Source: Cyclobacteriaceae bacterium (GTDB lineage: Bacteria > Bacteroidota > Bacteroidia > Cytophagales > Cyclobacteriaceae). From it: DNA of 64,000 nucleotides. The stretch is from assembly GCA_049430945.1 (NCBI GenBank), contig JBMTCO010000005.1:1001-65000 (forward strand), in the 5' to 3' direction. Made by a program: the position numbers and the translations under genes. Under the pieces are notes generated by a model. It saw only the letters and a list, made by a program, of their open reading frames with translations. It was not told where the DNA came from and made no database searches. This document shows positions 8,333 through 39,880 of this stretch, piece after piece. Within the stretch, counting starts at the first letter, position 1; every line of letters begins with the position of its first letter.

Positions 8333-9489
8333 TGACCTGGATTATTTGGCTGTTGCCTTGAGGGGTTTACGGGGCCTCTGTTTCTTACAGACTTGTTTTT
8401 TCTCTTTTTCCCTTTGGACTTATTGCGGTATTTTTTATCAAGCTGGGCGAGATCCGTATTGAGTGGACCTGCCGGCAGTTGTTCTTCTGTATCTTTTTCA
8501 AGGGTTGCCGGCTTGATACCTTTTTTATTCTGTTCAATTATCTGAGCCACACGATCTGCTGAAAGTGGATACCAGGAATTTTCATCCCTGTAACCGAACC
8601 ACATAATCCGACGGAAAATATCTGTTTTCTGAAGTGCTGCATCTCCGCGCTGGGTCTGCAGAGGGGCTTCAAGTTTGGGGATTTCCTTGAGCGCTTCCAT
8701 GTACGTTTCCAGCTCATAATTCAGACAACATTTTAAACGCCCGCACTGGCCTGAAAGCTTTGAGGGATTGAGTGATAAATTCTGATATCGTGCAGCACTG
8801 GTGGCCACATTTTTAAAGTCAGTAAGCCAGGTTGAGCAGCAGAGCTCCCGGCCGCAAACACCTATTCCACCAAGCCGACCCGCCTCCTGTCTGAGACTGA
8901 TCTGGCGCATTTCAATGCGGGTTTTAAATTCAGATGCCAGGGTTTTAATAAGCTCACGGAAATCAACGCGGTCCTCCGCAGAATAATAGAATGTGGCCTT
9001 GGTGTTATCTGCCTGATACTCTACATCCGAAAGTTTCATCTGCAGTTTGTATCGCTGAATAATTTCCCGACCCCTGAAAATGGCAGGCTCCTCTTTTTTA
9101 CGGACCTCATCAAAACGCTCAAGATCTTTGGCGTGAGCAATCCGGTATATCTTTTTTATTTCTGAATTATTAGGGACATTTTTCTTCATCATCTGAAGGC
9201 GGACCAGTTCGCCCTGAAGAGCAACATATCCTATGTGATGACCATTGGGAACTTCCACCACAACAGCGTCTCCAGTGTGCAGATGAAGATTTTCTGTATT
9301 TCGGAAAAATTCCTTTCGTCCGTTTTTAAAACGAACCTCCACCACATCAAAACGCTGAGCGGAGGGCACCTCCATATCGGAAAGCCAGTCAAACGTATTT
9401 AGCCGGTTACAGCCGCCTGTTCCACAGGTGCCGTTATTCTGACACCCTGTTACCTTATCGGTTCCGCCGGTTCCGCATGCACAACCCAT
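8329..9489 (-). CDS. PSP1/RicT (YaaT) family regulatory iron-sulfur protein
   Basis: VEVRFK, FYYSAEDRVDFRELIK, GGIGVCGRELCC, KLSGQCGRLKCCLNYE. Confidence 0.9.
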   Translation of the reverse strand: MGCACGTGGTDKVTGCQNNGTCGTGGCNRLNTFDWLSDMEVPSAQRFDVVEVRFKNGRKEFFRNTENLHLHTGDAVVVEVPNGHHIGYVALQGELVRLQMMKKNVPNNSEIKKIYRIAHAKDLERFDEVRKKEEPAIFRGREIIQRYKLQMKLSDVEYQADNTKATFYYSAEDRVDFRELIKTLASEFKTRIEMRQISLRQEAGRLGGIGVCGRELCCSTWLTDFKNVATSAARYQNLSLNPSKLSGQCGRLKCCLNYELETYMEALKEIPKLEAPLQTQRGDAALQKTDIFRRIMWFGYRDENSWYPLSADRVAQIIEQNKKGIKPATLEKDTEEQLPAGPLNTDLAQLDKKYRNKSKGKKRKNKSVRNRGPVNPSRQQPNNPGQ

Positions 9490-24068: not shown

Positions 24069-24947
24069 TTACTCTTTTGTGATTGGTACAGTAATTCTGA
24101 ATTCATGAGAAGCGCCAAATGAATTGGCAGCTCCCCATCCCGTTTCCCAGCAATAGCCAATTTCAATTTTACCGGCAGCTTTGAAGCCGGAATAGAGCGA
24201 CGCTCCGATACCCTGGTTATAAGCGGCACCGATAAAGAACCACTCATTGAATGTAAAATTTGAACCTACCTCCCAATTTCCGCGCAAATCTTTAACCGTA
24301 CGAAAAATAAATCTTGGTGTGACCTTAAGTTTAAGATTCCCGGACTCAAAAGAATAAAACAATGAGTACCACTGATTATAAAATGCCGAAGGCCTGGAAC
24401 GGTTCAATAACTGATTCAAATCTTCATCACCAGGAAGGAGGTCAGGCAGAGAAAAACCCACCTGCAGATTTCTGAATTCAAATGCTATCCCTGCTGCACC
24501 GGAAGGTTCGGTGCGTCCTTCGGCAGCACGGATAATGGCAGGATCATTTCCGTAGTCAACGCCATTCAAATTAAGTCTTTCTGAAACAAACCCACCGGAA
24601 AGTCCAAGCCGTAGTTTTACTTCCTTACTGAGCGGCACAACATAAGCGATTGCAAACCGGCTGTCCACATTTGTGAGATTCACTGATTCCTGCCCGATTA
24701 TGCTTACACCAAAGTTTACTCGTTTTTTTCCTGAGTGCTGAAATAAAAAACCTGTGGCAACAGGTCCATTGTTAAAGCTAATCCATTGCCGGCGGTGGAT
24801 CAGACTTACATCAAATGCATTGTTGATGCCTGTGAGCGAAGGGTTATAAATTCCCTGATTGGCGAAAAACTGCCTGAATACAGGACCGTCCTGGCAGAGT
24901 GCACCGAAGCCTGAAATCATGACAAGAATGATCAGCAGCGCTCTCAT
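24069..24947 (-). CDS. PorP/SprF family type IX secretion system membrane protein
   Basis: QFFAN...YNPSLTG, HRRQW, beta-barrel-like pattern, C-terminal SHEF; directly downstream of a type B CTD gene. Confidence 0.85.
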   Translation of the reverse strand: MRALLIILVMISGFGALCQDGPVFRQFFANQGIYNPSLTGINNAFDVSLIHRRQWISFNNGPVATGFLFQHSGKKRVNFGVSIIGQESVNLTNVDSRFAIAYVVPLSKEVKLRLGLSGGFVSERLNLNGVDYGNDPAIIRAAEGRTEPSGAAGIAFEFRNLQVGFSLPDLLPGDEDLNQLLNRSRPSAFYNQWYSLFYSFESGNLKLKVTPRFIFRTVKDLRGNWEVGSNFTFNEWFFIGAAYNQGIGASLYSGFKAAGKIEIGYCWETGWGAANSFGASHEFRITVPITKE

Positions 24948-26221
24948 CGTACAATCCGGACTGCTCCGGTTATTGACTTTCTGTTTTCACAACGGATTTC
25001 ATAGTAATAAGCCTCTTCTTCAAGCTGTCCGCCTCTTAATGATTTCCCGCTCCATGAATTGTCGTATCCGATTTTGTCCAGTACAATAGTTCCAAAACGG
25101 TCATAAATAATAAGGCGGCAATTTTCATATTCGAGCGTGTTCTCCCATTGCCAGAAATCATTTATTCCATCTCCGTTGGGACTGAATACTTCCGGGAAGG
25201 GCACAGGCTGAATGTCACCAGATGCAATTAAAAGACTTCGGCGTCTTGGACTGTTTTCAAGAACGAGTTTCATTCTTTCAACCTGATCGGTGGTGAAAAG
25301 ATTCATACAATCATCGTATGTATAGTCCATGTAGTTCTGGTACATGCGCCCTTGTGGGGTGCAGTCTGCCAGAACACCTGTGGGACAACTTTCAGTAGGC
25401 TCGGACTGTACAGGCGTGTCATCAATAAAGTCTGTGGAGGAGCAGCCCTCGCCGTCACCCCAGGTGTGGCGCAAACCAAAAAAGTGCCCCATTTCGTGAG
25501 TCAGAATGCGGCCTTCATTGTATCGGTTATCCAGATTAAATGGACCATCATTCACAGAGCCAAAACTGGCGTAACTTACAATGATGCCATCTGTCATTCT
25601 GCTGTAAGCTTCCCCGGAGGCTGAAAGCCCCTGCAATGTGGATATTGGAAATTGCGTAAAGCCAAAATAATCGGTTAGATTACAAACCCAGATATTAAGG
25701 TAATTTTCAGAAGGCCAGAAACTCAGTGATTTTGCATCGTCATTTTCGGACCGCGAATAACCTGAAAGATTCCCCTTTACCCTTACTATTCCTGAGGTAG
25801 ATTTTCCTGATGGATCAACAGAAGCCAGCACAAAACTGATGTTCATAGATCCTGCGGACTGGCTAAAAGAAGCAGGAGTTCTTACTGCATCATCGTTCAG
25901 TCTCTGAAAGTCATTGTTCAGTACTTTAATTTGAGACATCACCTGCGCATCTGAAATATTGGTTCCCGTTCCTACCGGCTCGCCTTTATGGATGATATGA
26001 ACCACAACAGGAATCGTATAGAAGTTTGCCTGAATGGAAGATTTTCTTGAAGATTTCAAACCGGTTAGCCAGGATTCAAACGTTTCTTCGGATTCGGTAA
26101 TAATCCCTTTTTTATAAAGGTCCCGGTTATGTTCCACTGTACCGCACCTGACTTGTCCCATAGCACCCGACCACTCAGTCAGTGCTATGAAAAAGATACA
26201 CGCGCGTGAAAAGGTAATCAT
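24944..26221 (-). CDS. M43 (pappalysin/ulilysin-like) Zn metalloprotease with T9SS type B C-terminal domain
   Basis: IPVVVHIIH, HEMGHFFGLRHTWG, QNYMDY, and FSPNGDGINDFW...YDRFG...W.G gliding-motility CTD. ATG 26221 chosen because the ORF-track TTG lies in a -7 box. Confidence 0.9.
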   Translation of the reverse strand: MITFSRACIFFIALTEWSGAMGQVRCGTVEHNRDLYKKGIITESEETFESWLTGLKSSRKSSIQANFYTIPVVVHIIHKGEPVGTGTNISDAQVMSQIKVLNNDFQRLNDDAVRTPASFSQSAGSMNISFVLASVDPSGKSTSGIVRVKGNLSGYSRSENDDAKSLSFWPSENYLNIWVCNLTDYFGFTQFPISTLQGLSASGEAYSRMTDGIIVSYASFGSVNDGPFNLDNRYNEGRILTHEMGHFFGLRHTWGDGEGCSSTDFIDDTPVQSEPTESCPTGVLADCTPQGRMYQNYMDYTYDDCMNLFTTDQVERMKLVLENSPRRRSLLIASGDIQPVPFPEVFSPNGDGINDFWQWENTLEYENCRLIIYDRFGTIVLDKIGYDNSWSGKSLRGGQLEEEAYYYEIRCENRKSITGAVRIVR

Positions 26222-26239
26222 TCCAATCCTATGGGACTT

Positions 26240-26247
26240 CAAAGATA
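26240..26247 (-). promoter_or_regulatory. -7 promoter box TATCTTTG (M43 protease-porP)
   Basis: CAAAGATA on the + strand; perfect consensus. Confidence 0.6.
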
Positions 26248-26288: not shown

Positions 26289-26828
26289 TCATTTTTTACA
26301 AATGAGTTTTTTGCTCACTGCCCAGTCAAAAAGTTTATCCTGCAGTGCATCAGCATCTTTACGAGCCACCACTTCATAATCATTATTGTAATAACCCTTC
26401 TGTTCAGTCTGGGTGGTGTATAACTTGTTTGACTGTCTGTTGCGAAGGTCAAGTGAATGTCGGATTTCATGAATCAGAGTATTGAGTAACTCCTTTAAAT
26501 TATTTTCATGGTTAGGATGACGCCAGTATAAAATCACAGTTCTGGTGATCGGATTAAAAGTCCCCATGACATTACCTAGATTTTTCCTTTTATAGCTTAT
26601 TAAAATGCAAGGTCGCCGGTAACTTCCGGTAATTTTATATTGAGACAGAATCCAGTCTGTGCAGTATTCAACAAATTTTTTATTTGAAATGGTAGGGTTG
26701 ATGACCCATATATCTGGTTCTGACTCAAAAATTTGAAACAGGAAATAAATAATTACGGCTACCAGGATGAGGTATGCCCATGCCTCAGTAGTGCCCCGTT
26801 CAAGCTCTTGTAGAAGTGTTTCAACCAT
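26289..26828 (-). CDS. Hypothetical membrane-anchored zincin-like metallopeptidase
   Basis: One TM helix (AWAYLILVAVIIYFLFQIF), HEIRH, and a downstream NDYEVVAR glutamate motif. Confidence 0.7.
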   Translation of the reverse strand: MVETLLQELERGTTEAWAYLILVAVIIYFLFQIFESEPDIWVINPTISNKKFVEYCTDWILSQYKITGSYRRPCILISYKRKNLGNVMGTFNPITRTVILYWRHPNHENNLKELLNTLIHEIRHSLDLRNRQSNKLYTTQTEQKGYYNNDYEVVARKDADALQDKLFDWAVSKKLICKK

Positions 26829-26832
26829 GAGC

Positions 26833-26867
26833 CAAATTTCAAGCCCATCGTTGTAGTCTATTCAAAA
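26833..26867 (-). promoter_or_regulatory. Degenerate operator (TTGTA-GTCTATT-CAAAA, 26851-26867) plus -7-like box GAAATTTG (26833-26840)
   Basis: Same 10-bp operator-to-box register as the three perfect sites; shares TAG(A/G)CTACAA with the 30036 site. Only 8/10 match, so support is positional. Confidence 0.45.
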
Positions 26868-26877
26868 TCTGAAAGTT

Positions 26878-27867
26878 TCAGACGTTATAGTATTTTTTCA
26901 TTTTTTCCACGTGAGCCTTTACGGAGGTAATTAATTCAGGCGGCTCCAGTACTTTTATCCTGCTGCCGAGGCCAAGAAGGGAAATGGTCAGTTCTTCAGA
27001 AAGGTAAACATCCAGCTGAATCACGGCACCTTTTTCATCCTCATCCATGATGCGCTGAGTTGCGTGCAGTGGTTGGATTTTGAGGAAATAAACAGAATCA
27101 GTGCTTACCCAGAAACGAACACAGCTGGGTTTACCTGATTGCAGCGTTGTAATTCCGATGCTATGTTTAAAATATCTGTTCAGATTAAAAGTAGGATCCC
27201 GGTAAAAGGAAACCCCTGCCACATCACGAACTGTCTTGATCCTGTCCAGTGCAAGATTTATGGTAAAATCCTTTTCTGCCGAATATCCGATCACATACCA
27301 TAGGCCTCTGTATTCCTTAAGTGCGTAAGGAGAGAAATAATGCTTGACTACTTTTTTCTGACGCATTGAGCGGTGTTCGATGATGATGCATTTTTCTTCC
27401 AGAATGGCTTCATGCAGCGGCTCCAGAAATTCAACGCCTTGCACCTGAAGATTTGATTCGCTGATAATGGCCGATCCCTCCTTTTTACGCTCAGTAACCT
27501 TTCTGAAAATTTTATTCAATACTGACTGTGCTTCCCTGATGAGCGCGATGTGGCTGTTACCATTCAACACGTTGATTGCAAAATCCAGGGCTTTGATTTC
27601 AGCTTTTTCGAGTTCATTGGTAAAAATTCTGTAATTCTCCTCCTCATAGTAATAACCCCTTTTTCGGGAACAGATGATGGGCGCCTTGAATTCTTGTTTC
27701 AAAAATCTGATGTCACCATCGAGCGTCTCAATTGCCACTGCGGTGCCACCGTGGGCCTCTAGTTTTAAATTAAGTTCATCAAGCAAATGCTGTCTTTCAA
27801 TGTTACCCTGTGCAATCAATTCATCAAGGATTCGGTATCGGAGATATGCATTTTTATTAATTGGCAT
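26878..27867 (-). CDS. HTH-WYL(-WCX) domain transcriptional regulator
   Basis: MPINKNAYLRYRILD N-terminus, wHTH (TLDGDIRFLK), SPYALKEYRGLWYVIG, ALDRI, and C-terminal LQPLH..Q...LGSRIKVLEP. Confidence 0.92.
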   Translation of the reverse strand: MPINKNAYLRYRILDELIAQGNIERQHLLDELNLKLEAHGGTAVAIETLDGDIRFLKQEFKAPIICSRKRGYYYEEENYRIFTNELEKAEIKALDFAINVLNGNSHIALIREAQSVLNKIFRKVTERKKEGSAIISESNLQVQGVEFLEPLHEAILEEKCIIIEHRSMRQKKVVKHYFSPYALKEYRGLWYVIGYSAEKDFTINLALDRIKTVRDVAGVSFYRDPTFNLNRYFKHSIGITTLQSGKPSCVRFWVSTDSVYFLKIQPLHATQRIMDEDEKGAVIQLDVYLSEELTISLLGLGSRIKVLEPPELITSVKAHVEKMKKYYNV

Positions 27868-27933
27868 AGGTGGTATTCAGATTGAAATTGGGTTATGTAA
27901 ATTTAACTTTACTTCTCAGATTGACGACGATGT

Positions 27934-29991
27934 TCAGGCTGCTTTAATTCTTGTTTCCTGTTTCGGGAATTTTGCAGTCACAACTGACTGACCCTTTAGT
28001 GCTGACTTAAGCGCTGACCTGTAAAAATTGCTGCGGGGATTTTCCGATAATGCTTCCGGATCAATTCCTGAACCATACTCCAGGGCCATTTCTCTGAGCA
28101 TAGCACTTTCAATTACCGGATGATCAGATAAATACCCGGAGAGGTGCAGCAACCATTTTTTTTGTGACTGAAGGTATGCTTTAGCGGATTCATAGGCCTC
28201 CTGCAGCCAGGTCGCTGCAATATTCCGTTGTTGTTCGGTGGGCGGAAGGCCGGCATTTGCATGACTCATAGGAAACTCAAAAAATCCGGGCACCTCACCC
28301 ATACCGGACTCAAGCAACATTTCATTAACAAGCCTGGTGGCATTCCGCAAATCGGATCCGGCTCCAAGCGTAATATTTTCCTTCCCGAAAATAATTTCTT
28401 CTGCTGCCAGGCCGCCCATCAATGCAATCAGTCTTAGTTTAAGTTCTCTGAATGAAAGACATCGCTCTGGGTTTTCGTTCCTGGTGAATCCTGCCATATG
28501 TATTTCCGATGTAACAGAATGCACACTTACCGGCACACGATACATCATTCCGATTGAAATTACAGCATGACCGGATTCATGGACTGCTGTAACCGTCTGA
28601 AGCTCATCTTTCCTCGGTTTGCGGAGTTTGTGTACAGATAAACCTAATTCCTCCTCCATCCTGACCATTCTACCTTTTTTACTGCGGAAGTTTTTTACCA
28701 AATGCGTTCCGGTCCAGCTCAGCTCCACAATAGTTAAATCCAGTCCAAGACGGAACCGTTCCACCATAATTTTTCCTGCCTGTGATCCGATGAGTTCATG
28801 GATGGTGGTGAACAGCGGACGAACGCCCTGCGTGGGAAATACGCCTTCACTGAATATCAATTGATGGATAGAGCTGTCAATTTCAAGTTTTACGCCTTCC
28901 TCAAGTGCGCGATTCGAAATTTTTAACAGTTCTGCACTGATAAGTTTTCTGAAAGACTCCGAACTGAAGGCAGGGTAGATCAAGTGACATGAACCCAGCC
29001 GTGCAATCTGCTCAGGCCTGAAACGGCGTGTAAGGGCAGTTCTGATAGTATTGATGTTTATTTCAAGACTCTGCCGGTGAAAATCATCCGGAGAAATATC
29101 CAGGTTCAGGTCATGACTCATCGGGAAAGCCTCATCCAGGTTGCCCATCACAAAAACCAGTCCTTTGCTGCAATCCATAATCTGCTGACCAAGAGAGTCC
29201 TTATAAGTTTTATGTAGGAACTGCAACAGCTCCGCGCCATTAAGTGTATTGATGTGTTTTTCCAGTTCATAAACTGTCTTAAACTTTCCGAGTGTGATTT
29301 CATAAATCTCTTCAAGACTCCATGCCGGTATGGCTCTTATTGCCTTATTGTCATGATGCTTTTCAAATTCCTCCCTCGGTATAAAAGCATGCTGAAAACG
29401 TTTCAGCACCTCGATGTACAATTCATGACCTTCTGTAACAATACCCTTCTCAATGCCGGCGCCATTGGCAAGGGCCGTGGATAATAAATGAATAAGCTGA
29501 AATACGCTGCTTTGTGCGTAACAATTTAGCGTTGTGACCAGTTGCCCGTTATCAAGAATGTCCCAGACATTTCTGATAAAACCTTTATCAATTTCATCAT
29601 CAGATGAATTAATTGTTCGGGCAAGCTGGAATTCATCAAAGGCTATGACCAGGGGCACTCCATTATGGTGAGGATAGAGGTTTTGTAAACCTTTTTTGAT
29701 GGTGTGCTCTTTGTCGTATGCTTCTCCAAGATCAAATTTGAAATAGCGATTTTCAAATCCGATAAGCCGGACAAACCTTGATACCAGTGATGTTTTCCCT
29801 ACCCCTGTAAGACCCCACAGGTTAACAACCAGGGGCCTGTCCTGTAAGTATGGGAAAAGAAACCATGGAGTGGTCACATCAATGACGCGATCAATAACAG
29901 AGTCGATACCAATGAATTCTGATTTCAGCTGAGCTCTGACAGATTCAAACAACCGGTGTTTTTCCAGAATTTCTTCGCCTTTTATAGTCAT
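27934..29991 (-). CDS. Soluble AAA+ ATPase (ClpB D2-like) fused to M41 (FtsH-type) Zn-peptidase domain
   Basis: Walker A GLTGVGKT, Walker B IAFDE, FRPEQIARLG, GVRPL (sensor 2), then HESGH...GGLAAEEIIFG...GAGSDL. No TM segment. ATG 29991 chosen. Confidence 0.85.
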   Translation of the reverse strand: MTIKGEEILEKHRLFESVRAQLKSEFIGIDSVIDRVIDVTTPWFLFPYLQDRPLVVNLWGLTGVGKTSLVSRFVRLIGFENRYFKFDLGEAYDKEHTIKKGLQNLYPHHNGVPLVIAFDEFQLARTINSSDDEIDKGFIRNVWDILDNGQLVTTLNCYAQSSVFQLIHLLSTALANGAGIEKGIVTEGHELYIEVLKRFQHAFIPREEFEKHHDNKAIRAIPAWSLEEIYEITLGKFKTVYELEKHINTLNGAELLQFLHKTYKDSLGQQIMDCSKGLVFVMGNLDEAFPMSHDLNLDISPDDFHRQSLEININTIRTALTRRFRPEQIARLGSCHLIYPAFSSESFRKLISAELLKISNRALEEGVKLEIDSSIHQLIFSEGVFPTQGVRPLFTTIHELIGSQAGKIMVERFRLGLDLTIVELSWTGTHLVKNFRSKKGRMVRMEEELGLSVHKLRKPRKDELQTVTAVHESGHAVISIGMMYRVPVSVHSVTSEIHMAGFTRNENPERCLSFRELKLRLIALMGGLAAEEIIFGKENITLGAGSDLRNATRLVNEMLLESGMGEVPGFFEFPMSHANAGLPPTEQQRNIAATWLQEAYESAKAYLQSQKKWLLHLSGYLSDHPVIESAMLREMALEYGSGIDPEALSENPRSNFYRSALKSALKGQSVVTAKFPKQETRIKAA

Positions 29992-30017
29992 ATACAGGAT
30001 TTGAGGTAACTGGGATG

Positions 30018-30052
30018 CGAAAATAGGCTGAAGCATTGTAGCCTAATTACAA
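30018..30052 (-). promoter_or_regulatory. Operator TTGTA-GCCTAAT-TACAA (30036-30052) plus -7-like box TATTTTCG (30018-30025)
   Basis: Perfect palindrome exactly 10 nt upstream of the -7-like box, in front of the AAA-M41 gene. Confidence 0.75.
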
Positions 30053-30106
30053 CGGGGTAAAGCGATTCAGTTTGACCTAAACCTTCAAAATCACGCTAAA
30101 ATTGAA

Positions 30107-30137
30107 TTTGCACAATCAAAAAATGGGTATAAATTTG
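30107..30137 (+). promoter_or_regulatory. Bacteroidota sigma-70 promoter for tRNA-Val (-33 TTTG, -7 TAAATTTG)
   Basis: TTTG at 30107-30110, a 19-nt spacer, then TAAATTTG at 30130-30137 followed by GC-rich CGCTCC. Confidence 0.75.
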
Positions 30138-30225
30138 CGCTCCTCTTTTGAGGATAGCCTAACAAGACACTTAAGGATATCCGATTTATTTCTTCGGAAA
30201 CAGGCAGTCAGGTTAGGGTAAAATT

Positions 30226-30300
30226 GGGAGCTTAGCTCAGCTGGTTCAGAGCATCTGCCTTACAAGCAGAGGGTCGGGGGTTCGAACCCCTCAGCTCCCA
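30226..30300 (+). tRNA. tRNA-Val (anticodon TAC); CCA not encoded
   Basis: Acceptor stem GGGAGCT/AGCTCCC, D-arm AGCTCAGCTGGTTCAGAGC, anticodon arm TCTGC-CTTACAA-GCAGA, T-loop GGTTCGAACCC. Confidence 0.97.
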
Positions 30301-30319
30301 CTCTTATACTTCATTTCAA

Positions 30320-30354
30320 CTGTTTAATCCCCTTTCAGGGATTTACATAAACAG
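30320..30354. terminator. Hairpin between tRNA-Val and the convergent recB
   Basis: CTGTTTA-ATCCC-CTTTCA-GGGAT-TTACA-TAAACAG imperfect stem-loop. Confidence 0.55.
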
Positions 30355-30468
30355 GTCTCCAAAAATTTTTATTTCTACAACCTTATACCCGTAAAGGTAT
30401 TTTCAAATTCTTTTGACTGAATTCAAATTGCCGGTTATGATTTTTTTAGACCTGAGAATTCACTCTAC

Positions 30469-33400
30469 CTATGCCAAAGCTTTATCACCGCGAAATAAAG
30501 CATCCATTCCTTCAATAACCTTACGGTCAGGCATTGAGTAGAAAATACCTTCTCTTCTGCCACGGCGCACGCCTCTGACAAATAAATAAATAACTCCTCC
30601 AAACTGACTGTCGTAATCAAACCCGGGAATGCGGCTCTGCAAATATCTCATGGCCGCCAGAGTATATAAATGATACTGCAGATTATAATTATTCTCTGCC
30701 ATGGCCATGTTCAGCTGTTCTTCAGAATAATCTTCAACACGGTCACCGAGGTAGTTTGACTTCCAGTCGAGGATGTAAAACTTGCCTTCCCACTCAAAAA
30801 ATAAATCCATCAGACCATTCATAATTCCTTCCAGTTCGGAGCGGCTGCCCATTCCATCTTCATCTGTCAGCGCGACTTTGAAAGGAGCATGTGCTGGCGC
30901 AAGGCTCTGCAGCTCTGAAACCTGAAATGGTTTCAGATCAAGATCAAATTCAAGTTCAGCCATACGATTTGTACGATCAAGTTCTGAAAGCCTGAAGGTG
31001 CCGTCCGGCAAAAGCTGAGTCTCAAGGATTTCTTTTACCATAATGGTTAATGAAGACTCAAAGGAATCAGAAGCACCGGAATCTGCGGAGTTTCGTACCT
31101 GAAAGCGCTTGACCATTTTACTTACCACCGCATCCCATCCATGCGGAGCTGTGAAGTTGACATTTTCAAAAATGGCATGCAGCATATTTCCTGTTACGGC
31201 TCCTTTACGCAGTCTGCGGAAAACAAAATGGTCGTATGCCGTCATGTCCGTACGCTGACTAACCGGAATAGCAACCGGCGTATGATCCGGCGTCAGCCTC
31301 GTGAAGCTTGCACGCCTCCAGTTTTTCTCCCGGAGTTCAAAAATACCTGCGTTTTTATAAACAGCTGTCTGAACCTGCTCAGGAGCAGCCTGCCCCGCAA
31401 GAAGGTTTGAAGGCGGTGTCCATAAACGGATAAGACTATTTTCAGGGCTTTCCAGTTCAAGCTTGGAAAAGAAGCGTCCAAGGAATTCGGCCCCGGAATT
31501 ATATTTTTTATCAGTGAGAATAAAACATTGTTGTTTGGCCCTGGTCAATGCCACATAAAGAAGTCTCAGATTTTCTCGTTCCTGTTGCAGACGATACAAT
31601 TCCATTTTATCCGGATATCCTTCCAGTGTAATTTTATTTATCGTAACATAATCTCCCTGCTCGGTTTGGAATTCAGCAGTTTTATGTTTTGACTGTGAGA
31701 CAGGTTCAAGCTGAGGACAAATTACAATAGGGTATTCAAGTCCCTTTGATTTATGGATGGTTACAATTTTAACGGCATCTTCGTCGCTTTCAATGCGCTG
31801 GATATATTCATCCCCTTCAGGAGTTTCTCCTTCAGTACCCCGCTGAAGCCATTGCACCTGTTCTGCCATGTCATAGCTTTTTCGTACTGAAATTCTGTGA
31901 ATCAGGTCAACCAGTTGCAGCAAATTGGCAACAGAGCGCTCAGCATTTTTTACTCCGGCTTCGTAAAAACGGCTATGGACCTTATGATCTGCCATAAACT
32001 GCTGGAGCATCACATAAACACCCTTTGATTTCCAGGCTTCCTGATATCTGCGAAACCTGGCAATCAGATCTTCACTGTTTGACCTGCTCAGTTGCTCAAT
32101 TGAGTAACCGGCAATATTTGTCAGCAACGCACGGTTCACTTTACTTACTGTCAGTTCATGAATTCCGGACAGTACATAAAATAATTCCAAAGCCTCAGGT
32201 GATTCAAGTATTCCGCTGTCATCCACTGTAACTGAAGGTATCCGGGCGGCAGCAAGCTGCTTTTTTATTTCTTGGCCTTTTGAATTCGTCCTTACCAGAA
32301 TTCCGATATCTGAGAATTTAATATCATTCGGAACACCATTTTTAAGCAGTTTATATTCTCCGGACCAAACCAAATGACTGACCAGGACAGCCAGCGAATT
32401 AATCCGATGGTCAACCTTAGGGTGTGATGATACAAGAACCGGCGCTATATTTTCTCCGTTTCTGGTAAGAATCGCTTTATCGTTTGGAACAGGTGATTTG
32501 ACCTTCATATACTTAAGGTCATTGCCATATCTGAATGTATCAAAGGGACCTCCCTCCTGTTCAGGCAGAAAAAATTTGTTCATTGCATCAATGAGCCTGG
32601 TATTGGAGCGGAAATTCGTATTCATGTAATGTAATGTGTGAACTTCCGATACAGCTTTGAAGTAAGTACTAAGATCCGCCTTTCTCCAGCCATAGATGGA
32701 TTGCTTTGGATCGCCGATGAAATACAAATAGTGCTCTGCTCCGAAGAGCTCTTTAAAAATCCCGTACTGATCGGCATCTGTATCCTGAAACTCATCAATG
32801 AACACAGCATGAAATCTTTCGCGGAGCCGGTTTCGAAGCTCATCCCTCTGTGTCCCTTCCGTAACAGCCTTTCGGACCTGTATGATCAGGTCATCAAATG
32901 TTTTTGAAAGCCTGCGGTCTTTTTCTTTTCCAATCAGGTCAGCAATTGAAGCCATGGCATCGCCTGCAATTTGCTGACACAGGATTCTAAGGCCTGCCTG
33001 TTGTGCATTACACTTGGCAAGGTAGGCTCTCATTTCATTGACAGCAGGGCCGAACACACACTTGTCTCTGATATAGTTTACTTCCTGTTTCAGACTCAAA
33101 GTTTCTGTTAAAGAATCCCATAATTCTCTTTCAAAGTGAACTTTGAAAGCCTTTGATGCGTTTGTGTTATCCTCAAATAACTGCAGAATCGTCTCTTTGT
33201 GATTTTTACATGCTTGAATAAAAGCATTCTTCAAATCTTCCGTCTCCCTTAAAATCTGTAAAATTCTGTTCTGATGCGTCTGCTCCAAAAAATCCTCAAC
33301 AAGCGCTTCCGGATTAAATGGTTTCTTGCCGGAAAGCCCTGACTTGACCATTTTAAAAATCACGGTTCGCTCCATACTGAAATTTATAGGATCCTCATTG

Positions 33401-33975
33401 GGCCTAATAACTGCATGTTCTCGCAACAAGGCTGTCAAAATATCAGGATGAAGGGTGGCAATTTTACTCCGCCAGTAATCATTCAGGTGGTCATCAATAA
33501 GTATCTGATAATCGTCTTCTGACAACATGCCTGTGCCAAAAGCCTGCATGGTCTCAAACGAGAATTCCTGAAGAACACGCTGGCAAAAACTATGAATGGT
33601 CAGCACAGCAGTCTCGTCCAACAAGGCTACAGCATTTTCAAGCTTTTTAATCACCTCCTCCTGTGAAGTGGCATTTATCCGGGCAGAGATGATGTTCTTA
33701 ATATTTACATCGGCATCTGCCGCATTGAGGTCGCGTGCGATCTCCAGGGCCTGCCTCACAAAAGAGCGCACACGCAATTCAAGTTCTGCCACAGCAGCAC
33801 GCGTGAAAGTCACCATCAGGATCTTATTTACCGGAATATTTTTTTCCAATAGCAAACGCAGCGTAAGGATGGCAATGGAATATGTTTTTCCTGTACCTGC
33901 AGATGCTTCAACCGCCTGTGGTTGTTGGATGACATCAACAGTTACAGCTTCAAAATTTTCATTAATAATGGGCAT
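30469..33975 (-). CDS. recB: Exodeoxyribonuclease V beta subunit (helicase + nuclease)
   Basis: EASAGTGKTYSI, TFTRAAVAEL, DEFQDTD, IGDPKQSIYGWR, TIHKSKGLEY, RLLYVALTRA, and nuclease motifs MDL...ILDWKSN and YNLQYHLY. ATG 33975. Confidence 0.93.
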   Translation of the reverse strand: MPIINENFEAVTVDVIQQPQAVEASAGTGKTYSIAILTLRLLLEKNIPVNKILMVTFTRAAVAELELRVRSFVRQALEIARDLNAADADVNIKNIISARINATSQEEVIKKLENAVALLDETAVLTIHSFCQRVLQEFSFETMQAFGTGMLSEDDYQILIDDHLNDYWRSKIATLHPDILTALLREHAVIRPNEDPINFSMERTVIFKMVKSGLSGKKPFNPEALVEDFLEQTHQNRILQILRETEDLKNAFIQACKNHKETILQLFEDNTNASKAFKVHFERELWDSLTETLSLKQEVNYIRDKCVFGPAVNEMRAYLAKCNAQQAGLRILCQQIAGDAMASIADLIGKEKDRRLSKTFDDLIIQVRKAVTEGTQRDELRNRLRERFHAVFIDEFQDTDADQYGIFKELFGAEHYLYFIGDPKQSIYGWRKADLSTYFKAVSEVHTLHYMNTNFRSNTRLIDAMNKFFLPEQEGGPFDTFRYGNDLKYMKVKSPVPNDKAILTRNGENIAPVLVSSHPKVDHRINSLAVLVSHLVWSGEYKLLKNGVPNDIKFSDIGILVRTNSKGQEIKKQLAAARIPSVTVDDSGILESPEALELFYVLSGIHELTVSKVNRALLTNIAGYSIEQLSRSNSEDLIARFRRYQEAWKSKGVYVMLQQFMADHKVHSRFYEAGVKNAERSVANLLQLVDLIHRISVRKSYDMAEQVQWLQRGTEGETPEGDEYIQRIESDEDAVKIVTIHKSKGLEYPIVICPQLEPVSQSKHKTAEFQTEQGDYVTINKITLEGYPDKMELYRLQQERENLRLLYVALTRAKQQCFILTDKKYNSGAEFLGRFFSKLELESPENSLIRLWTPPSNLLAGQAAPEQVQTAVYKNAGIFELREKNWRRASFTRLTPDHTPVAIPVSQRTDMTAYDHFVFRRLRKGAVTGNMLHAIFENVNFTAPHGWDAVVSKMVKRFQVRNSADSGASDSFESSLTIMVKEILETQLLPDGTFRLSELDRTNRMAELEFDLDLKPFQVSELQSLAPAHAPFKVALTDEDGMGSRSELEGIMNGLMDLFFEWEGKFYILDWKSNYLGDRVEDYSEEQLNMAMAENNYNLQYHLYTLAAMRYLQSRIPGFDYDSQFGGVIYLFVRGVRRGRREGIFYSMPDRKVIEGMDALFRGDKALA

Positions 33976-33979
33976 AGAC

Positions 33980-36900
33980 TTATTTAATTGTACCGGGGAA
34001 AAATTCATTTATTAACCGGGTCATTTCCTGAGTATTTTCTTTAAGTATTTCAAAAGTATCTTCTGAAACAAAATCCTGTTCACAGGCTTTCAGGAAATAA
34101 TCATCTCTTAAGGGGTGTGAATCTGCAGAGCGGGCTTTTTCAATCTCTTCAAGCAAATCGGACAATTCCTTACCATTTTTAAATTTACCTATCAGTCCAT
34201 GGAAGAAGTAGAAAAAATTATTTAATCCACCCTTATAATATTCAATGAGCTTTTGCAATTTCTCCTTCGCTCCTTCAGGAGAAATTTTTTCAGGACCACA
34301 AACACTTGCTTCTCCTTTATAATTAATAAATACAAACTCAACGGGTAAACCTGAAGCTACAAGGCCCAGGTAATAAACAATACCACTGAGCATGTGCTTA
34401 TGAGCTGACTTTGAAAAAGTCCACCTCACCATTCGGAGCTTATTTCCGGAATTCAGAATGTCAGCAACCTGACCTTTCAACTGAATGGTTTCATAATCCA
34501 CCTTCACATTCTGCGGACCGGACTCCCATCCATCCGTCCACATTTTTATTTCATAGCGCAAAGGTTCAAGTTCTGCTCTTAAAATACGGGCAGTTGCCTT
34601 GCCGAGATTATGAAGCGGCAGTTTACCGTTATCAGATTGCATTTTGACAATCGCGTCGAAATCACTGTCCTGCATCCGAATCAGCTTATCTGACAATTCC
34701 CGTTCGTCAAAAAATTCAAGCTCAAAGGGTTCATGATCCTTAAGAATCACTTCATCTTCTCTGTACCAGATATCAAAAAACTTAGTGAGAAATGTTTTGG
34801 GAGGGTTTTCGAGGAAATGAGCAATTTCCTGAATGCCTACAATTGCAGAATCAGTCAAAGGAGACTTCCTTGTTTCTCCGATTCTTATATCGATGCGCGA
34901 ACGAAAGCGATCCGGTGACAGATAACTGGTGAGGCCGTGAGGACCATAACGTTTACTAAAACCATGAAGCGGATGAATCGTAACCCAGTCGGCAGTCAGT
35001 TTATCAGGATTTTTCTTTTGAGCTCTTGCTACAAACCCAATCAGTTCATCAACCAGAATACTGGGTGGTAGCACAGCCCCATCTTTCTCACTTCGTGCCT
35101 GGAAGCTGATGTAAAGTTTTTCCTGCGCTGATAATACGGTTTCAAGGAATAAGTGCTTGTCGTTGGCCTTAACGTTCCGGTCTCCTTTTTTATGTTTAGA
35201 AAGCAAACTGAAATTCACCGGTGTTTCCTTGCGTGGAAAGGCTTCAAAGTTCATTCCGAGCATGGCCACAACACGAAACGGAATACTGCGCATAGGAAGC
35301 AGCGAGCAGAATGTTATTCCCTTCGCTGCAAACTGGGTACTGCGTCGTTCCACAGAAAGCTTACTGAGGAAACTGGTTCTGAAAACATCAAAAGGAATGG
35401 CAACCTGCGCGGCTTCCTTCATATCAGTGAGCTGCTCAATCAGACTGATAAACCTTGGATAGTCCTCATCATCCCTTTCGCCTGCCTGAAATACCATATC
35501 CTCAAGTAATTCCTTCAGGTAATCTGCCCAGCCTGCAAGTGTTCTTGGCGTGGCACGCATCTCAATTTTATCACGAAGGACTCGTAAAAAATAAGCAAGT
35601 CTGATGCGATCCAGTCCTCCGGCTCCTTCTTCCGTATCAAGAACAGGAACCAAATCAACGCCATCGGAATAGGATGCATCTCCTTCGGGCTGCATGCACA
35701 ACCCATAAATCATCTTTTTAAGGCCGGTGGTCCAGCTGATTTTGCGGCTGTCGTCATCGTTCGTTCCATCAAGGCCGAAAAAAACTGTAGCCTGCCTGAT
35801 GGCATTTCTGATTTCATCCAGATCATCAAACTGAAATCTGCGCCTGATGTATGGAAAATCCAGCATTCCCATGATTTCTTCTGCCTTAAAGCGCAGACCA
35901 TCGAATTCAAGGAGTGCCTTCAGAGCAGCGAAAAGATTATTTTCTGATGCAATCAGTTCATCAGCTATTGAATATCGGAATCGGTTAGCAGAGTTGCCGA
36001 AAACTGCATGTATATATGGTGCATACAAGTCAATGTCAGGCACCATCACCAGAAAATCGCGTGCAGAATAGTCTGATCCTTCTTTGTCAACCAGTGAAAC
36101 AAAATAATTGTACAGCACCTCTACTTCACGAGGAGGAGTATAGCAGCCGTTAATTATTACCGAACCATCCTTATGATCCTGCGCACCAATGGCAATTTCA
36201 TTTCCTTCCTGAAGGTCCCGGAAGGTCATATTTTTATATATGCCGTAATGAAGGCGGGCAAGAAGGTTAGTCGGATTTTCAGGCGCTACGGCCAGACTGT
36301 CATCATAGCGGTTAATCAGTTCATCATCCTGAAACAATAACCAGAAAGATTCCTTGATGATACCACCCCAGTTGAGCAGCAGATCATTTCCATGAGGTTC
36401 ATTTCCTTCAAAGAGCGGGTTTACATATTTCCCGGTAAATCGTGCAAGCTGCTTTTCTGAAAAGTAATCCAGCCAGTAAACCTCAGGCGCAGGATTAAGC
36501 AGAAACATATGGATGTCAACAAATCCGGAAAGGGCTTTAAAAATTTTCTGGAAAAATGGGGTGACTACGGCAATTCCAAAAATGTACAGGTGGGGCATCT
36601 TTTCAAGAATGCGCTCACGCACTTCAGGCTCATTTAATTTGCTGATGATCAGTCCGGCAATCTGGGTTCTGTCCTTTGCGTTGTCTCCGAAACTGTCCCG
36701 TAACTTCCTCCAGAGATATGGTTGCCAGTCTTCTGAGTTCTCAATTTCTTGGTCAGTAAGATTATTCCAGTCGGTGATGTCGTCTGAACGGTAGATCTGG
36801 TACTGATCAAACAAATCGGCAACTTTCTGCGCAAGGGTCGCCATTCGGATCACATCCCGGTCATAGTAAGACGCAACCTCAGGAAATTTTTCACGGAACG

Positions 36901-37213
36901 CCGGTGAGTCCAGAATTGAATACACTACCCAGCAGATCTCTTCTTTTGAAAATGAATCCTGTCGCTGATTAATACCTGCCGCGATCCACTCAAGTCGACT
37001 TACCACATCAGCAGGCTGGACAAATTGAATGTTGGATGCGATTCCGGTCTGAGCGGCGATGGTATTTTTGAGCCAACTGCTCATGCCGTCAGTCTGAGTA
37101 ATCACAAGCTGTGATCTCATCACACCAAGACCGTGGCTATGGGCGGCCATATCGGTACAAAGACGGCCGGCAAGCCTCTTCAGGTCATTTGAAACATGCA
37201 GTAAAAATGGCAT
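33980..37213 (-). CDS. recC: Exodeoxyribonuclease V gamma subunit
   Basis: LHVSNDL, ADLFDQYQIYR, LLNP...YW, CYTPPREVEVL, VMVPDIDLYAPYIHAVF, FCSLLPMRSIPFRVV, HPLHGFS. Confidence 0.93.
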   Translation of the reverse strand: MPFLLHVSNDLKRLAGRLCTDMAAHSHGLGVMRSQLVITQTDGMSSWLKNTIAAQTGIASNIQFVQPADVVSRLEWIAAGINQRQDSFSKEEICWVVYSILDSPAFREKFPEVASYYDRDVIRMATLAQKVADLFDQYQIYRSDDITDWNNLTDQEIENSEDWQPYLWRKLRDSFGDNAKDRTQIAGLIISKLNEPEVRERILEKMPHLYIFGIAVVTPFFQKIFKALSGFVDIHMFLLNPAPEVYWLDYFSEKQLARFTGKYVNPLFEGNEPHGNDLLLNWGGIIKESFWLLFQDDELINRYDDSLAVAPENPTNLLARLHYGIYKNMTFRDLQEGNEIAIGAQDHKDGSVIINGCYTPPREVEVLYNYFVSLVDKEGSDYSARDFLVMVPDIDLYAPYIHAVFGNSANRFRYSIADELIASENNLFAALKALLEFDGLRFKAEEIMGMLDFPYIRRRFQFDDLDEIRNAIRQATVFFGLDGTNDDDSRKISWTTGLKKMIYGLCMQPEGDASYSDGVDLVPVLDTEEGAGGLDRIRLAYFLRVLRDKIEMRATPRTLAGWADYLKELLEDMVFQAGERDDEDYPRFISLIEQLTDMKEAAQVAIPFDVFRTSFLSKLSVERRSTQFAAKGITFCSLLPMRSIPFRVVAMLGMNFEAFPRKETPVNFSLLSKHKKGDRNVKANDKHLFLETVLSAQEKLYISFQARSEKDGAVLPPSILVDELIGFVARAQKKNPDKLTADWVTIHPLHGFSKRYGPHGLTSYLSPDRFRSRIDIRIGETRKSPLTDSAIVGIQEIAHFLENPPKTFLTKFFDIWYREDEVILKDHEPFELEFFDERELSDKLIRMQDSDFDAIVKMQSDNGKLPLHNLGKATARILRAELEPLRYEIKMWTDGWESGPQNVKVDYETIQLKGQVADILNSGNKLRMVRWTFSKSAHKHMLSGIVYYLGLVASGLPVEFVFINYKGEASVCGPEKISPEGAKEKLQKLIEYYKGGLNNFFYFFHGLIGKFKNGKELSDLLEEIEKARSADSHPLRDDYFLKACEQDFVSEDTFEILKENTQEMTRLINEFFPGTIK

Positions 37214-37225
37214 TGATTATTTTTT

Positions 37226-39073
37226 TCAGTTAGGAATGGAGGGACGGCTAAGTTTCTCGCTGACTCCGGAAGCTCTGGTGACCTGGCGACCGACGCAGGC
37301 TATGATCTGGTCTTTGGTTCCAGAAATGATCACGGACTGTTTGGCGCGGGTGATAGCCGTATATAATAGTTCACGGGTAAGAAGCCTGTGTCCGGGTTCC
37401 TTCGGAAGAAAAATCATAACGGAATCAAACTCACTTCCCTGACTCTTGTGGATGGTCATGGCATAGGTTGTTTCTGTATGACTGAGGTACGCCGGAAGAA
37501 CCGACCGCAATACGGGTTTGCCATGCTCATCCAAGATTCCTGAATCAAACCAAACCCGTAATGTGCCCTCAGCATCTTCTCGAACAATGCCGACATCGCC
37601 ATTCACAAGTCCCAGCTCGCTGTTATTTCTTGTGATCAATACAGGGCGGTGTTTATACCAGACAGTTCCCGTATTAATGAGCTTTTTACTTTGCAGGTAT
37701 TGCTCAATGCGCTTATTCAGTTCATAAAGACCGAATTTACCCTCCCGTACAGCTGTGAGAATGCGAATGGAGTTCAGTTTTTTCAAAGCTTCGGATTTGT
37801 CGTCTTCTTTTATGAAGGCCTCATATCCGGAAGCAAATTGCTTCAGAAGTTCTTCGTCATATTCAACATCAAAAAGTAACTGCGGAGATTTTTTATCCTG
37901 ATCACGCGTCTTTTGGTACAGGTCTGTCAGTTCACCAAGTGTGTCCGCATCATTATGAAGGACAGCTTTTGCAACATTTCCGATCAGACCCAGCGCATTA
38001 AACCGGTGGCTGTACTTAAGTTCAGTGATGAATCCGGAGAGAAGACCCGCGTTTGGAACAGGAACAGGCTGCCCGGGAATGCAGCGTGATTCATCGGTTA
38101 TAAAACGGTTAAACCAATTCTGATCGGAAAAGGAGAAGGCATTAAGTGTTCCTGCAGAACGGCAAAGATCTCCCAGCATACTTCCTGCTTCTACAGATGC
38201 GAGCTGGTTCTGATCGCCAAGTAATATTAATCGTCCATGCTCAGGCAAGGCATCCATCAGTTTACTCATCATTGGCATATCTGTCATACTTGACTCATCT
38301 ACAACGATCAGGTCATAAGGAAGTGGATTTGATTTATTGTGCTTGAAGTGAACCGTGCCTCTTTTATAGCCAAGCAGGCTGTGTATGGTCAGCGCCGGAA
38401 TTTCCTGTATCCACTTCCTGATGTTTTCAGGTTCGTTAGCCACTGATTTACGAAGCGATTCAATCATACGCATGGCGGCCTTACCTGTCGGGGCAGTGAG
38501 GTGAACAATTTTATCCGGATATATGCGATGAAAAATTTTCAGAATTTTTGCCAAAGTGGTTGTCTTGCCTGTACCGGGACCACCGGTAAGAATTGAAAAA
38601 TCTGACAACAGACAACGCATGGCACCAACCAGCTGCCAGTCAACCGCCTCAGGCGTACCTGTAATTCCCGGAGTAAGTTCCGGAAATGATGTTCCGAGGG
38701 ACTTTATAAAATCTAAATTTCTAAGCAGCAATTCTTCACGCTCAGCACGTAATGATGAACTTTTGACAACCGCTGCTTTTATTTTATTAATGACGTTAGC
38801 CTCATACCTGAAATAACGGTGCAGGTATAACTTTCCATTGGTCAGTATAAAGGGTTTGATGTCTGTTTCCTCCGTTCCAACCCAGGTTGAAAGCTTGGAC
38901 CAATCAGGTAATTCTGTCAGATTATAAGGGGGCTGATTAAGCGTTTCTTCCGGATTGATACAGATATGTCCTTCCAGTAAGCGTTCGCTTAACAGATAAG
39001 CAAAAGGTCTGATCCGCAGATCAGGGAAAAACTCAGCAAACTGGCGATGTACATCGTTGGTAATAACAGTCAT
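37226..39073 (-). CDS. recD: Exodeoxyribonuclease V alpha subunit
   Basis: GHICI, LYLHRY, VDWQ, GGPGTGKTT, APTGKAA, VVDESSM, LGDQNQLASVEAG, NGDVG, YAMTIHKSQGSEF, RELLYTAITRA. Confidence 0.95.
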   Translation of the reverse strand: MTVITNDVHRQFAEFFPDLRIRPFAYLLSERLLEGHICINPEETLNQPPYNLTELPDWSKLSTWVGTEETDIKPFILTNGKLYLHRYFRYEANVINKIKAAVVKSSSLRAEREELLLRNLDFIKSLGTSFPELTPGITGTPEAVDWQLVGAMRCLLSDFSILTGGPGTGKTTTLAKILKIFHRIYPDKIVHLTAPTGKAAMRMIESLRKSVANEPENIRKWIQEIPALTIHSLLGYKRGTVHFKHNKSNPLPYDLIVVDESSMTDMPMMSKLMDALPEHGRLILLGDQNQLASVEAGSMLGDLCRSAGTLNAFSFSDQNWFNRFITDESRCIPGQPVPVPNAGLLSGFITELKYSHRFNALGLIGNVAKAVLHNDADTLGELTDLYQKTRDQDKKSPQLLFDVEYDEELLKQFASGYEAFIKEDDKSEALKKLNSIRILTAVREGKFGLYELNKRIEQYLQSKKLINTGTVWYKHRPVLITRNNSELGLVNGDVGIVREDAEGTLRVWFDSGILDEHGKPVLRSVLPAYLSHTETTYAMTIHKSQGSEFDSVMIFLPKEPGHRLLTRELLYTAITRAKQSVIISGTKDQIIACVGRQVTRASGVSEKLSRPSIPN

Positions 39074-39161
39074 GCAGCTTTAGTATTTAGAAAAACGACA
39101 GGGGAAGAAAAAGAAGTTAAATTTAATCTAATTCTTTTTTACGGTTTGATTCGGGAAAAGG

Positions 39162-39350
39162 TTAATCAGTTTCAGGATCCTTCTTTTCCTCTACAGGTAT
39201 CTGTTCATCATTCTCTTCACTATTTGACTCCGGATTGACTGAGGAATCGGGGGTAACATACTTATCCAGATTATGGATCAAAAAAGAGTCTGCCTGCTCC
39301 TGACCAAAAAGAGACGCAAAAGACTCAAGAAATTCTTCAGAAAACTTCAT
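39162..39350 (-). CDS. Small acidic hypothetical protein (62 aa)
   Basis: ATG 39350 after an A-rich leader and operator/-7 architecture; 17 D/E versus 4 K and 0 R. Confidence 0.6.
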   Translation of the reverse strand: MKFSEEFLESFASLFGQEQADSFLIHNLDKYVTPDSSVNPESNSEENDEQIPVEEKKDPETD

Positions 39351-39373
39351 AGTTATTTCGTTTAATTTTTCCA

Positions 39374-39408
39374 CAAATAAAATGCTCCTGATTGTAGTGG
39401 AAATACAA
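39374..39408 (-). promoter_or_regulatory. Operator TTGTA-GTGGAAA-TACAA (39392-39408) plus -7-like box TTTATTTG (39374-39381)
   Basis: Perfect palindrome exactly 10 nt upstream of the -7-like box, facing the acidic ORF and recD-recC-recB. Confidence 0.75.
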
Positions 39409-39452
39409 CAAGGAAATTCCATCTATTATTCCTTAACAAGAATTTTCTTTCA

Positions 39453-39487
39453 TTGTAAAACCAATACAATTGACTCCCTGATTTTTG
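39453..39487 (+). promoter_or_regulatory. Operator TTGTA-AAACCAA-TACAA (39453-39469) plus -7-like box GATTTTTG (39480-39487)
   Basis: Perfect palindrome exactly 10 nt upstream of the -7-like box, 15 nt before ATG 39503. Confidence 0.75.
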
Positions 39488-39502: not shown

Positions 39503-39880
39503 ATGAAAGAAAATCATTCAGAAACCAGTTGCCCGGGCTGCAGCTGGAAGCCGCAGGCTGATCACACATGGTATTGCCTCTGTGGACACAGCTGGAACAC
39601 ATTCGAAACAGGAGGAATTTGTCCCGGTTGCAAAAAGGCATGGGATAAGACGCAGTGTCCGGCCTGCGACAGCTGGTCAGATCATACAGACTGGTATTCA
39701 GGTCTTAAAAAGAAGCTTAGGCAAGATCTTTCTGAATTGCTGCACAAACCACGGAAAAGAAAAATCAAAAGAAAATTTTCAGTTTTTCAATACAGGTCAC
39801 TGCATAATATATCCCTGATTCAGAGAAAAAAATTCAATGCGCCTTTTTTACTTTTCAGAATACCGCCGCTTAAAAATTGA
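39503..39880 (+). CDS. Cys-rich Zn-ribbon-like hypothetical protein
   Basis: CPGC...WYCLCGHSW...CPGC...CPAC..WSDH.DWY (8 Cys) followed by a basic low-complexity tail. Confidence 0.7.
   Translation: MKENHSETSCPGCSWKPQADHTWYCLCGHSWNTFETGGICPGCKKAWDKTQCPACDSWSDHTDWYSGLKKKLRQDLSELLHKPRKRKIKRKFSVFQYRSLHNISLIQRKKFNAPFLLFRIPPLKN

Follow-up and report, generated by a model that had tools for sequence, protein, structure and literature searches.

A phased TTGTA-N7-TACAA palindrome as the probable operator of a WYL-domain transcription factor in a Cyclobacteriaceae genome

The palindrome TTGTA-N7-TACAA recurs at promoters in a 64,000-nucleotide stretch of a Cyclobacteriaceae bacterium genome (assembly GCA_049430945.1, contig JBMTCO010000005.1, positions 1,001 to 65,000; hereafter the window), which also encodes a transcription factor built of winged helix-turn-helix (wHTH), WYL and WCX domains. 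The motif and its spacing from the promoter are conserved and are tied exclusively to the clade of WYL proteins to which this factor belongs. We consider it probable that the palindrome is the binding site of the local wHTH-WYL-WCX protein and forms one half of a composite promoter, most likely activating six promoters.

By pattern search the window contains exactly three perfect copies, at 30036-30052, 39392-39408 and 39453-39469, where 0.08 would be expected; dinucleotide shuffles reached three or more copies in 0/100 cases. A fourth copy at 26851-26867 matches 8/10 positions and reads TTTTGAATAGACTACAA on the minus strand. The search agrees with an earlier note on this DNA, which had read three perfect copies and one 8/10 copy directly from the sequence. 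That note had also placed each copy exactly 10 nt from a −7-like box, which holds for all four copies, each box being oriented to the adjacent gene, and is borne out by an offset test over 17 sites described below. The operators, their boxes with predicted transcription start sites (TSSs), and the proposed regulator are as follows.

30036..30052, minus strand: operator O1, TTGTAATTAGGCTACAA, perfect, upstream of the AAA-M41/WYL operon
30018..30025, minus strand: O1 −7 box TATTTTCG, 10 nt downstream of O1; predicted TSS ~30013
26851..26867, minus strand: operator O4, TTTTGAATAGACTACAA, distal half degenerate, between the WYL and zincin genes
26833..26840, minus strand: O4 −7 box GAAATTTG, 10 nt from O4
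39392..39408, minus strand: operator O2, TTGTATTTCCACTACAA, facing an acidic open reading frame (ORF) and recDCB
39374..39381, minus strand: O2 −7 box TTTATTTG, 10 nt from O2; predicted TSS ~39369
39453..39469, plus strand: operator O3, TTGTAAAACCAATACAA, facing a Zn-ribbon ORF
39480..39487, plus strand: O3 −7 box GATTTTTG, 10 nt from O3; predicted TSS ~39492
26878..27867, minus strand: wHTH-WYL-WCX transcription factor, the proposed palindrome binder (Pfam WYL 1.4e-11, WCX 4.4e-7)

Across the whole assembly (G000; 2.89 Mb in 208 contigs), the bare palindrome is not enriched, with six perfect copies against about 5.3 expected from base composition. The earlier estimate that perfect sites exceed chance therefore stands within the window but not genome-wide, and the signal lies instead in the clustering of the copies, their intergenic position and their fixed link to a −7 box. 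Intergenic positions account for five of the six perfect copies: the window has three within 9.4 kb, and contig C12 has the other two. C190:1337, the remaining copy, is inside a 465-aa ORF without a box and was taken as chance. When the box is included, the composite TTGTA-N7-TACAA-N14-TTYG occurs five times in this genome as compared to about 0.2 times per genome elsewhere among 401 genomes of the order, an outcome that favours the earlier note's interpretation; the reversed composite pattern has no match (0) in G000. The next-richest genome, G058, has four composite hits, and the two inspected fall inside ORFs of 1056 aa and 1231 aa.

The two copies on contig C12 (L001, 7856-9319) define a second locus of the predicted regulon. 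They lie at 8084 and 8156, 72 bp apart in one intergenic region, and stand back to back, each having a separate box at 10 nt that faces outward (CCTATTTG and TTCCTTTG). A 57-aa ORF lies on one side, and an 88-100-aa ORF followed by a 247-aa PD-(D/E)XK nuclease (Cas4/AddB-like) on the other. The earlier note had described a regulon inside the accessory block of the window; its window promoters stand, but the regulon is not confined to that block, as the C12 locus has to be added.

A position weight matrix (PWM) made from the oriented sites was used to scan the whole genome. The six promoters score 26.5-32, with O4 the lowest at 26.5, and the next intergenic candidate reaches 18; none of the recA and uvr promoters scored. 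As only six promoters score high, the regulon in this genome is small. One further match, C45:17997 with a score of 26, resembles real sites in score (TTTTAAAACCGTTACAA, N10, TATCCTTG; L037 ~7998-8032, minus strand) and lies antisense in a SpeA-like, 466-aa arginine/ornithine decarboxylase-like ORF. We take it as probably a chance match, the other possibility being an antisense promoter.

The link between palindrome and box was examined with 17 perfect sites from non-redundant loci, scoring both flanks against TAnnTTTG at offsets 0-24 without choosing the orientation beforehand and requiring at least 5/6 box positions. A box is found at offset 10 in 10/33 orientations, while every other offset gives 0-1. 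The oriented consensus is TTGTAAAW-n-S-n-C-TACAA, N10, TAnnTTTG, and the spacer of the palindrome is asymmetric, its A-rich side being distal to the promoter. The distance from the binding site to the −7 box is thus invariant, both in this test and in the sister clades described below, as it is in WYL activators such as DriD and PafBC. The sigma-A box of Flavobacterium covers −12 to −5 (PMC9723704), so the palindrome covers approximately −39 to −23. Among intergenic TAnnTTTG boxes of the genome, a −33 TTG is enriched only with a 19-nt spacer (11% versus ~2.5%). The regulated promoters carry AAW where this TTG would be, a position that falls in the A-rich spacer of the palindrome, and the TTG of the distal half-site sits 24 nt away. 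The target promoters accordingly lack a −33 element and have the palindrome in its place, although most boxes in the genome also lack TTG, which makes this a weak distinction.

Association with the WYL gene was assessed in six independent orthologue loci on metagenomic contigs: L036 (69% identity), L029 and L034 (both 50%), L031 (46%), L030 (45%) and L032 (39%). Perfect intergenic palindromes are present in 6/6 of these loci at the promoters of neighbouring genes, with 12 sites in 70 kb in total, and one-mismatch copies occur at equivalent promoters. With the close relatives included, all metagenomic loci that encode an orthologue (39-93% identity) have the palindrome, spaced as in the window. 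This co-occurrence with the WYL orthologue, which the earlier note had expected, falls to chance level near distant paralogues. The control set of ~2.05 Mb around ~180 WYL paralogues (26-36% identity) contains five perfect sites: none in 85 kb from 22 loci of ~30%-identical paralogues of relatives, five in 1.19 Mb from 80 paralogue loci of species genomes, and none in 0.77 Mb from 78 metagenomic paralogue loci. At the level of single sites, O1 is 17/17 identical in the 93% and 69% relatives while its flanks diverge, and O4 is kept in its degenerate form (TTTTGAATAGA[C/T]TACAA, N10, GAA[A/T]TTTG) in four genomes, including the same two relatives.

The genes beside the motif vary widely. Close relatives share the AAA-M41 protease and the zincin, whereas other orthologue loci hold PF00004 AAA ATPases, GIY-YIG (±YaaA) nucleases, a UvrD-PDDEXK helicase-nuclease, a methyltransferase, a metallophosphatase operon and DUF2779/OGG genes. 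In L029-L034, homologues of the Zn-ribbon ORF, the acidic ORF and the AAA-M41 gene are absent. Of all gene families, WYL alone occurs in every locus that carries the motif, and no other DNA-binding regulator is present there, which agrees with the earlier assignment of the WYL protein as the regulator tied to the site. A conserved AAA partner was considered and rejected, as BLAST shows no homology between the AAA-M41 protein of the window and the PF00004 AAA ATPases in the orthologue loci; judged from the sequences, the pairing of WYL with an AAA ATPase recurs with different ATPases and is one of protein class, not of orthology.

We also note features of individual orthologue loci. In L029, the GIY-YIG protein (7797-8429) encoded beside the 50% orthologue has a match at 1e-98 to PDC-M57B, a defence candidate in PADLOC, and the presence of an integrase, excisionase-like HTH genes and a McrBC fragment gives the locus the look of an integrative island. 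In other loci (L031 3000-4820), a YaaA (DUF328) domain either forms one protein with a GIY-YIG_2 domain or comes after it.

More distant WYL proteins allow the specificity of the site to be compared across clades. Sister clades at 26-33% identity carry palindromes with a GTA-N7-TAC core beside the WYL gene, with other flanks (ACGTA, TAGTA, GGTAA and CCGTA): ACGTAAATAGRYTACGT, TAGTAAATAGGCTACAA, GGTAAGGTATTTACC and CCGTATTGTATATACGG (loci L061, L065, L125, L137, L130, L139, L180, L183, L187, L070, L138, L174 and L096). In the ACGTA and TAGTA groups (ACGTAAATAGRYTACGT and TAGTAAATAGGCTACAA) the palindrome is again followed by N10 and a −7 box. The recognition-helix residue aligned with D50 is D, E, T or Q and shifts together with the flank, the pattern expected if the wHTH domain reads the site. 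From the co-occurrence of motif and clade and this co-variation of helix and flank, we infer that a WYL dimer physically binds the inverted repeat. In the ACGTA clade, AAA ATPase genes follow the WYL gene with a 4-nt gap after the box (L061, L137), which implies a leaderless AAA mRNA. The C12 nuclease and the small zincin likewise have homologues that adjoin WYL genes in sister clades; those of the nuclease (46-49% identity) are divergent from the WYL genes in L180, L183 and L187. Comparison of these loci suggests that the composite-promoter design may be family-wide in Bacteroidota.

The recBCD target is supported by a second species. recC is present in only 2/60 relatives, so the recBCD cluster is accessory in the genus. 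One of these two, the same-genus genome G024, whose RecC is 58% identical, carries TTGTAATCTGACTACAA, N10 and TTCCTTTG directed toward recD, in the gap between a transglutaminase-like gene and recD. Because this site lies upstream of recD, the predicted control of recD by the motif is conserved across species. A separate motif hit in this genome (G024:C1) falls inside a 530-aa ORF and was set aside.

The WYL protein, 329 aa long, is the only one in G000, as judged by a single match in a genome search. It comprises a WYL domain (PF13280) followed by a WCX domain (PF25583), and its AlphaFold model (pLDDT 80) has helices at 7-19, 25-38 and 46-59 followed by a beta hairpin, a winged HTH. The top 30 fold matches in the PDB are all PafBC, DriD, BrxR or CapW, in the order PafB/PafC (E = 1e-13), DriD (4e-11) and BrxR/CapW (~1e-8; 4e-9 to 1e-8). 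A sequence profile ranks them alike, with PafBC at E = 4.5e-9 and DriD marginal at E = 0.03. No close orthologue was found in 60 related genomes, where the best match has 33% identity. Orthologues in a large protein collection fall at 93, 84, 69, 54-45 and 39-36% identity, and GTDB genomes and JGI metagenomes yielded no relative above 36% identity apart from G000 and two contigs of the 93% relative.

These observations suggest a mechanism in which the promoter-proximal end of the palindrome, 10 nt upstream of the sigma-A −7 box, would place the site as a stand-in for the −33 TTG. The bound WYL dimer would most likely recruit or adapt RNA polymerase in the fashion of DriD and PafBC, and the WYL domain would sense single-stranded DNA (ssDNA) arising from DNA damage or phage attack. 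Activation, the preference of the earlier note, seems a reasonable deduction and is favoured here over repression, because the site is fixed over a missing −33 element as in DriD/PafBC promoters. We propose ssDNA, DNA damage or phage as the trigger acting through the WYL domain, by analogy with PafBC, DriD, SiwR, DdaA and CapW. The predicted targets are the operon of the AAA-M41 protease and the WYL gene itself, which would create positive feedback; the leaderless small zincin, possibly with the downstream M43 and PorP genes; the acidic ORF with recDCB; the Zn-ribbon ORF; and the divergent pair on contig C12, including the PD-(D/E)XK nuclease. The predicted regulon thus includes recDCB and a PD-(D/E)XK nuclease, but also proteases and genes of unknown function. 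The window genes concerned, with a neighbouring tRNA gene, are listed here.

27934..29991, minus strand: soluble AAA-like ATPase-M41 (FtsH-type) peptidase fusion, 685 aa, HESGH (Pfam Peptidase_M41 8e-20)
26289..26828, minus strand: 179-aa small zincin, HEIRH (from translation; weak Peptidase_M90 match)
24944-26242, minus strand: M43 peptidase with a CHU_C domain (gene map)
24069-24947, minus strand: PorP/SprF (gene map)
39162..39350, minus strand: 62-aa acidic ORF (translation), first gene of the recDCB transcription unit
37226-39073, minus strand: recD (Pfam)
33980-37213, minus strand: recC (Pfam)
30469-34008, minus strand: recB (Pfam)
39503..39880, plus strand: 125-aa protein (translation) with a Cys-rich Zn-ribbon-like region and a basic tail
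30226-30301, plus strand: tRNA-Val (TAC), between the AAA-M41/WYL operon and recB

The longest possible AAA-M41 ORF has an ATG that overlaps the site at 30036. The true start is most likely at 29991, giving the 685-aa product that is also called in relatives. This protein lacks a transmembrane anchor; its small domain is Clp-D2-like, and its HESGH motif is intact. At the zincin gene, the ATG lies 4 nt past the −7 box (window 26826-26840), which predicts a perfectly leaderless mRNA, the predicted TSS being the A of the ATG at 26828. The M43 and PorP/SprF genes downstream may be co-transcribed with the zincin; in the 93% relative (L026), the M43 gene overlaps the zincin stop codon. No terminator-like site was found between the acidic ORF and recD. 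The 125-aa Zn-ribbon-like protein matches no Pfam family, and the AAA-M41, zincin and Zn-ribbon proteins have no PADLOC defence-system match. In L026 an HD_4-domain gene is called between the recB and AAA-M41 genes, and this junction is variable.

Several observations weigh against activation by the WYL protein. In fold, this protein is nearly as close to the repressors BrxR and CapW as to the activators; the palindrome overlaps the core promoter, which a repressor covering the −33 region would explain too; and the missing −33 TTG is weak evidence, because only 11% of intergenic TAnnTTTG boxes have the TTG. The high-scoring match at C45:17997 sits antisense inside the decarboxylase ORF. Finally, no WYL gene was found in G024, a metagenome-assembled genome that is 77% complete in 410 contigs, so that this absence is not conclusive.

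The first two of these points bear on a serious rival, in which the WYL protein is a repressor like BrxR and CapW that occludes the −33 region and leaves the DNA when its WYL domain binds ssDNA, so that the regulon is de-repressed. CapW and BrxR are described as wHTH-WYL-WCX repressors that bind palindromes and sense ssDNA (PMC11662680); both are among the fold matches of the protein here (E 1e-8 to 4e-9), and the PDC-M57B match in L029 would fit a role in defence. Repressor operators, however, need no fixed register with the −7 box, whereas the 10-nt gap is invariant over ~20 promoters and is also kept in the ACGTA and TAGTA sister groups at ~30% identity. Moreover, divergent promoters each own a site rather than sharing one, the regulated promoters lack a −33 TTG, the palindrome spacer is asymmetric and oriented with the promoter, and in several loci there is no site directly upstream of the WYL gene itself. 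We therefore regard repression as possible but rather unlikely.

A different factor that co-occurs with WYL, such as an alternative sigma factor, the Zn-ribbon protein or a host regulator, could instead read the palindrome. The presence of the site in G024 where the WYL gene was not detected, and the basic tail of the Zn-ribbon ORF, lend themselves to such an explanation. Yet the downstream element is a sigma-A −7 box, the dyad symmetry suits a dimeric HTH protein, only WYL is shared among the motif loci (the Zn-ribbon, acidic ORF and AAA-M41 genes being without a homologue in L029-L034), and the flank bases shift with the WYL clade and its recognition helix, all of which make recognition by another factor improbable. 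That the copies are chance matches or repeat remnants without a regulatory role would fit the bare genome count of 6 close to the expected 5.3, but is effectively refuted, and in our judgement extremely improbable, given their clustering, intergenic position, fixed −7 spacing, conservation in the loci of 39-93% orthologues and the controls.

Stress and DNA-damage regulation in Bacteroidota is poorly mapped, and the literature searched describes no WYL regulator, motif or WYL regulon for this phylum. The present analysis offers an operator that can be tested, an exact geometry for the promoter and a series of naturally occurring specificity variants (TTGTA, ACGTA, GGTAA and CCGTA flanks with their helix changes). 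A further prediction is that transcription of RecBCD can be induced in some Bacteroidota, under joint control with an unusual soluble AAA-M41 protease. Should activation by the WYL protein prove true, the −35 replacement of DriD and PafBC would also hold in a phylum whose primary-sigma promoters are built differently. A broader idea, which we offer tentatively and which may well not hold, is that WYL factors across the phylum form composite promoters from a palindrome with a GTA-N7-TAC core set 10 nt upstream of the −7 box, a homodimeric sigma adaptation that arose independently and suits the unusual sigma-A of Bacteroidota, with RecBCD, AAA-M41 and a leaderless zincin made inducible here by one nucleic-acid sensor; if true, it would amount to an SOS-independent damage or phage alarm that joins DNA-end processing with proteolysis.

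The closest parallels are two activators whose promoters share this geometry. Structural work on DriD, the Caulobacter crescentus activator of an SOS-independent response to damaged DNA, describes a positionally fixed site in place of a missing −35 element (PMC13004042). DriD resembles the protein here in being a homodimeric wHTH-WYL-WCX protein of ~330 aa with a helical linker, in its palindrome with a 7-nt spacer (CGAC-N7-GTCG) and in fold (E = 4e-11). It differs in its half-sites, which are TTGTA here; in its promoter partner, which is here of the Bacteroidota sigma-A −7/−33 type; and in its regulon, which here comprises RecBCD, the AAA-M41 protease, zincins and GIY-YIG or PD-(D/E)XK nucleases. 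For the protein described here, ssDNA sensing and activation are predictions. The hybrid promoters of actinobacterial PafBC, an activator associated with 'sigma adaptation', likewise have no −35 element, and their factor-specific element keeps a constant distance to the −10 (PMC8635444). PafBC is the best match in both sequence (4.5e-9) and fold (1e-13); its regulon is one of DNA repair, and its gene is linked in the genome to an AAA/proteolysis system. Unlike the protein here, it is a heterodimer or fusion in which one HTH reads an asymmetric −26 element, whereas the symmetry of the 17-bp palindrome implies that a homodimer places both of its HTH domains on DNA; the present regulon is also small, with six promoters and no recA or uvr genes.

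Other characterized WYL proteins fall on either side of the question of activation. DdaA of Moraxellaceae and SiwR of Mycobacterium smegmatis are homodimeric WYL activators with motifs in damage-induced promoters; DdaA binds the palindrome CGWCA-N5-TGWCG and also controls anti-phage genes (PMC12392091), and SiwR controls adjacent genes through the −26 region (PMC10693628). They differ from the protein here in phylum, motif and targets. BrxR and CapW share its domain architecture and bind palindromic operators, with CapW sensing ssDNA. They are, however, ~290-aa repressors that head BREX or CBASS operons, while the locus here contains no known defence system by PADLOC and its sites are phased with the −7 box. 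Both WYL activators and the geometry of their promoters are already known, and what is new is the Bacteroidota clade, its motif, the adaptation to a −7/−33 promoter and the content of the regulon.

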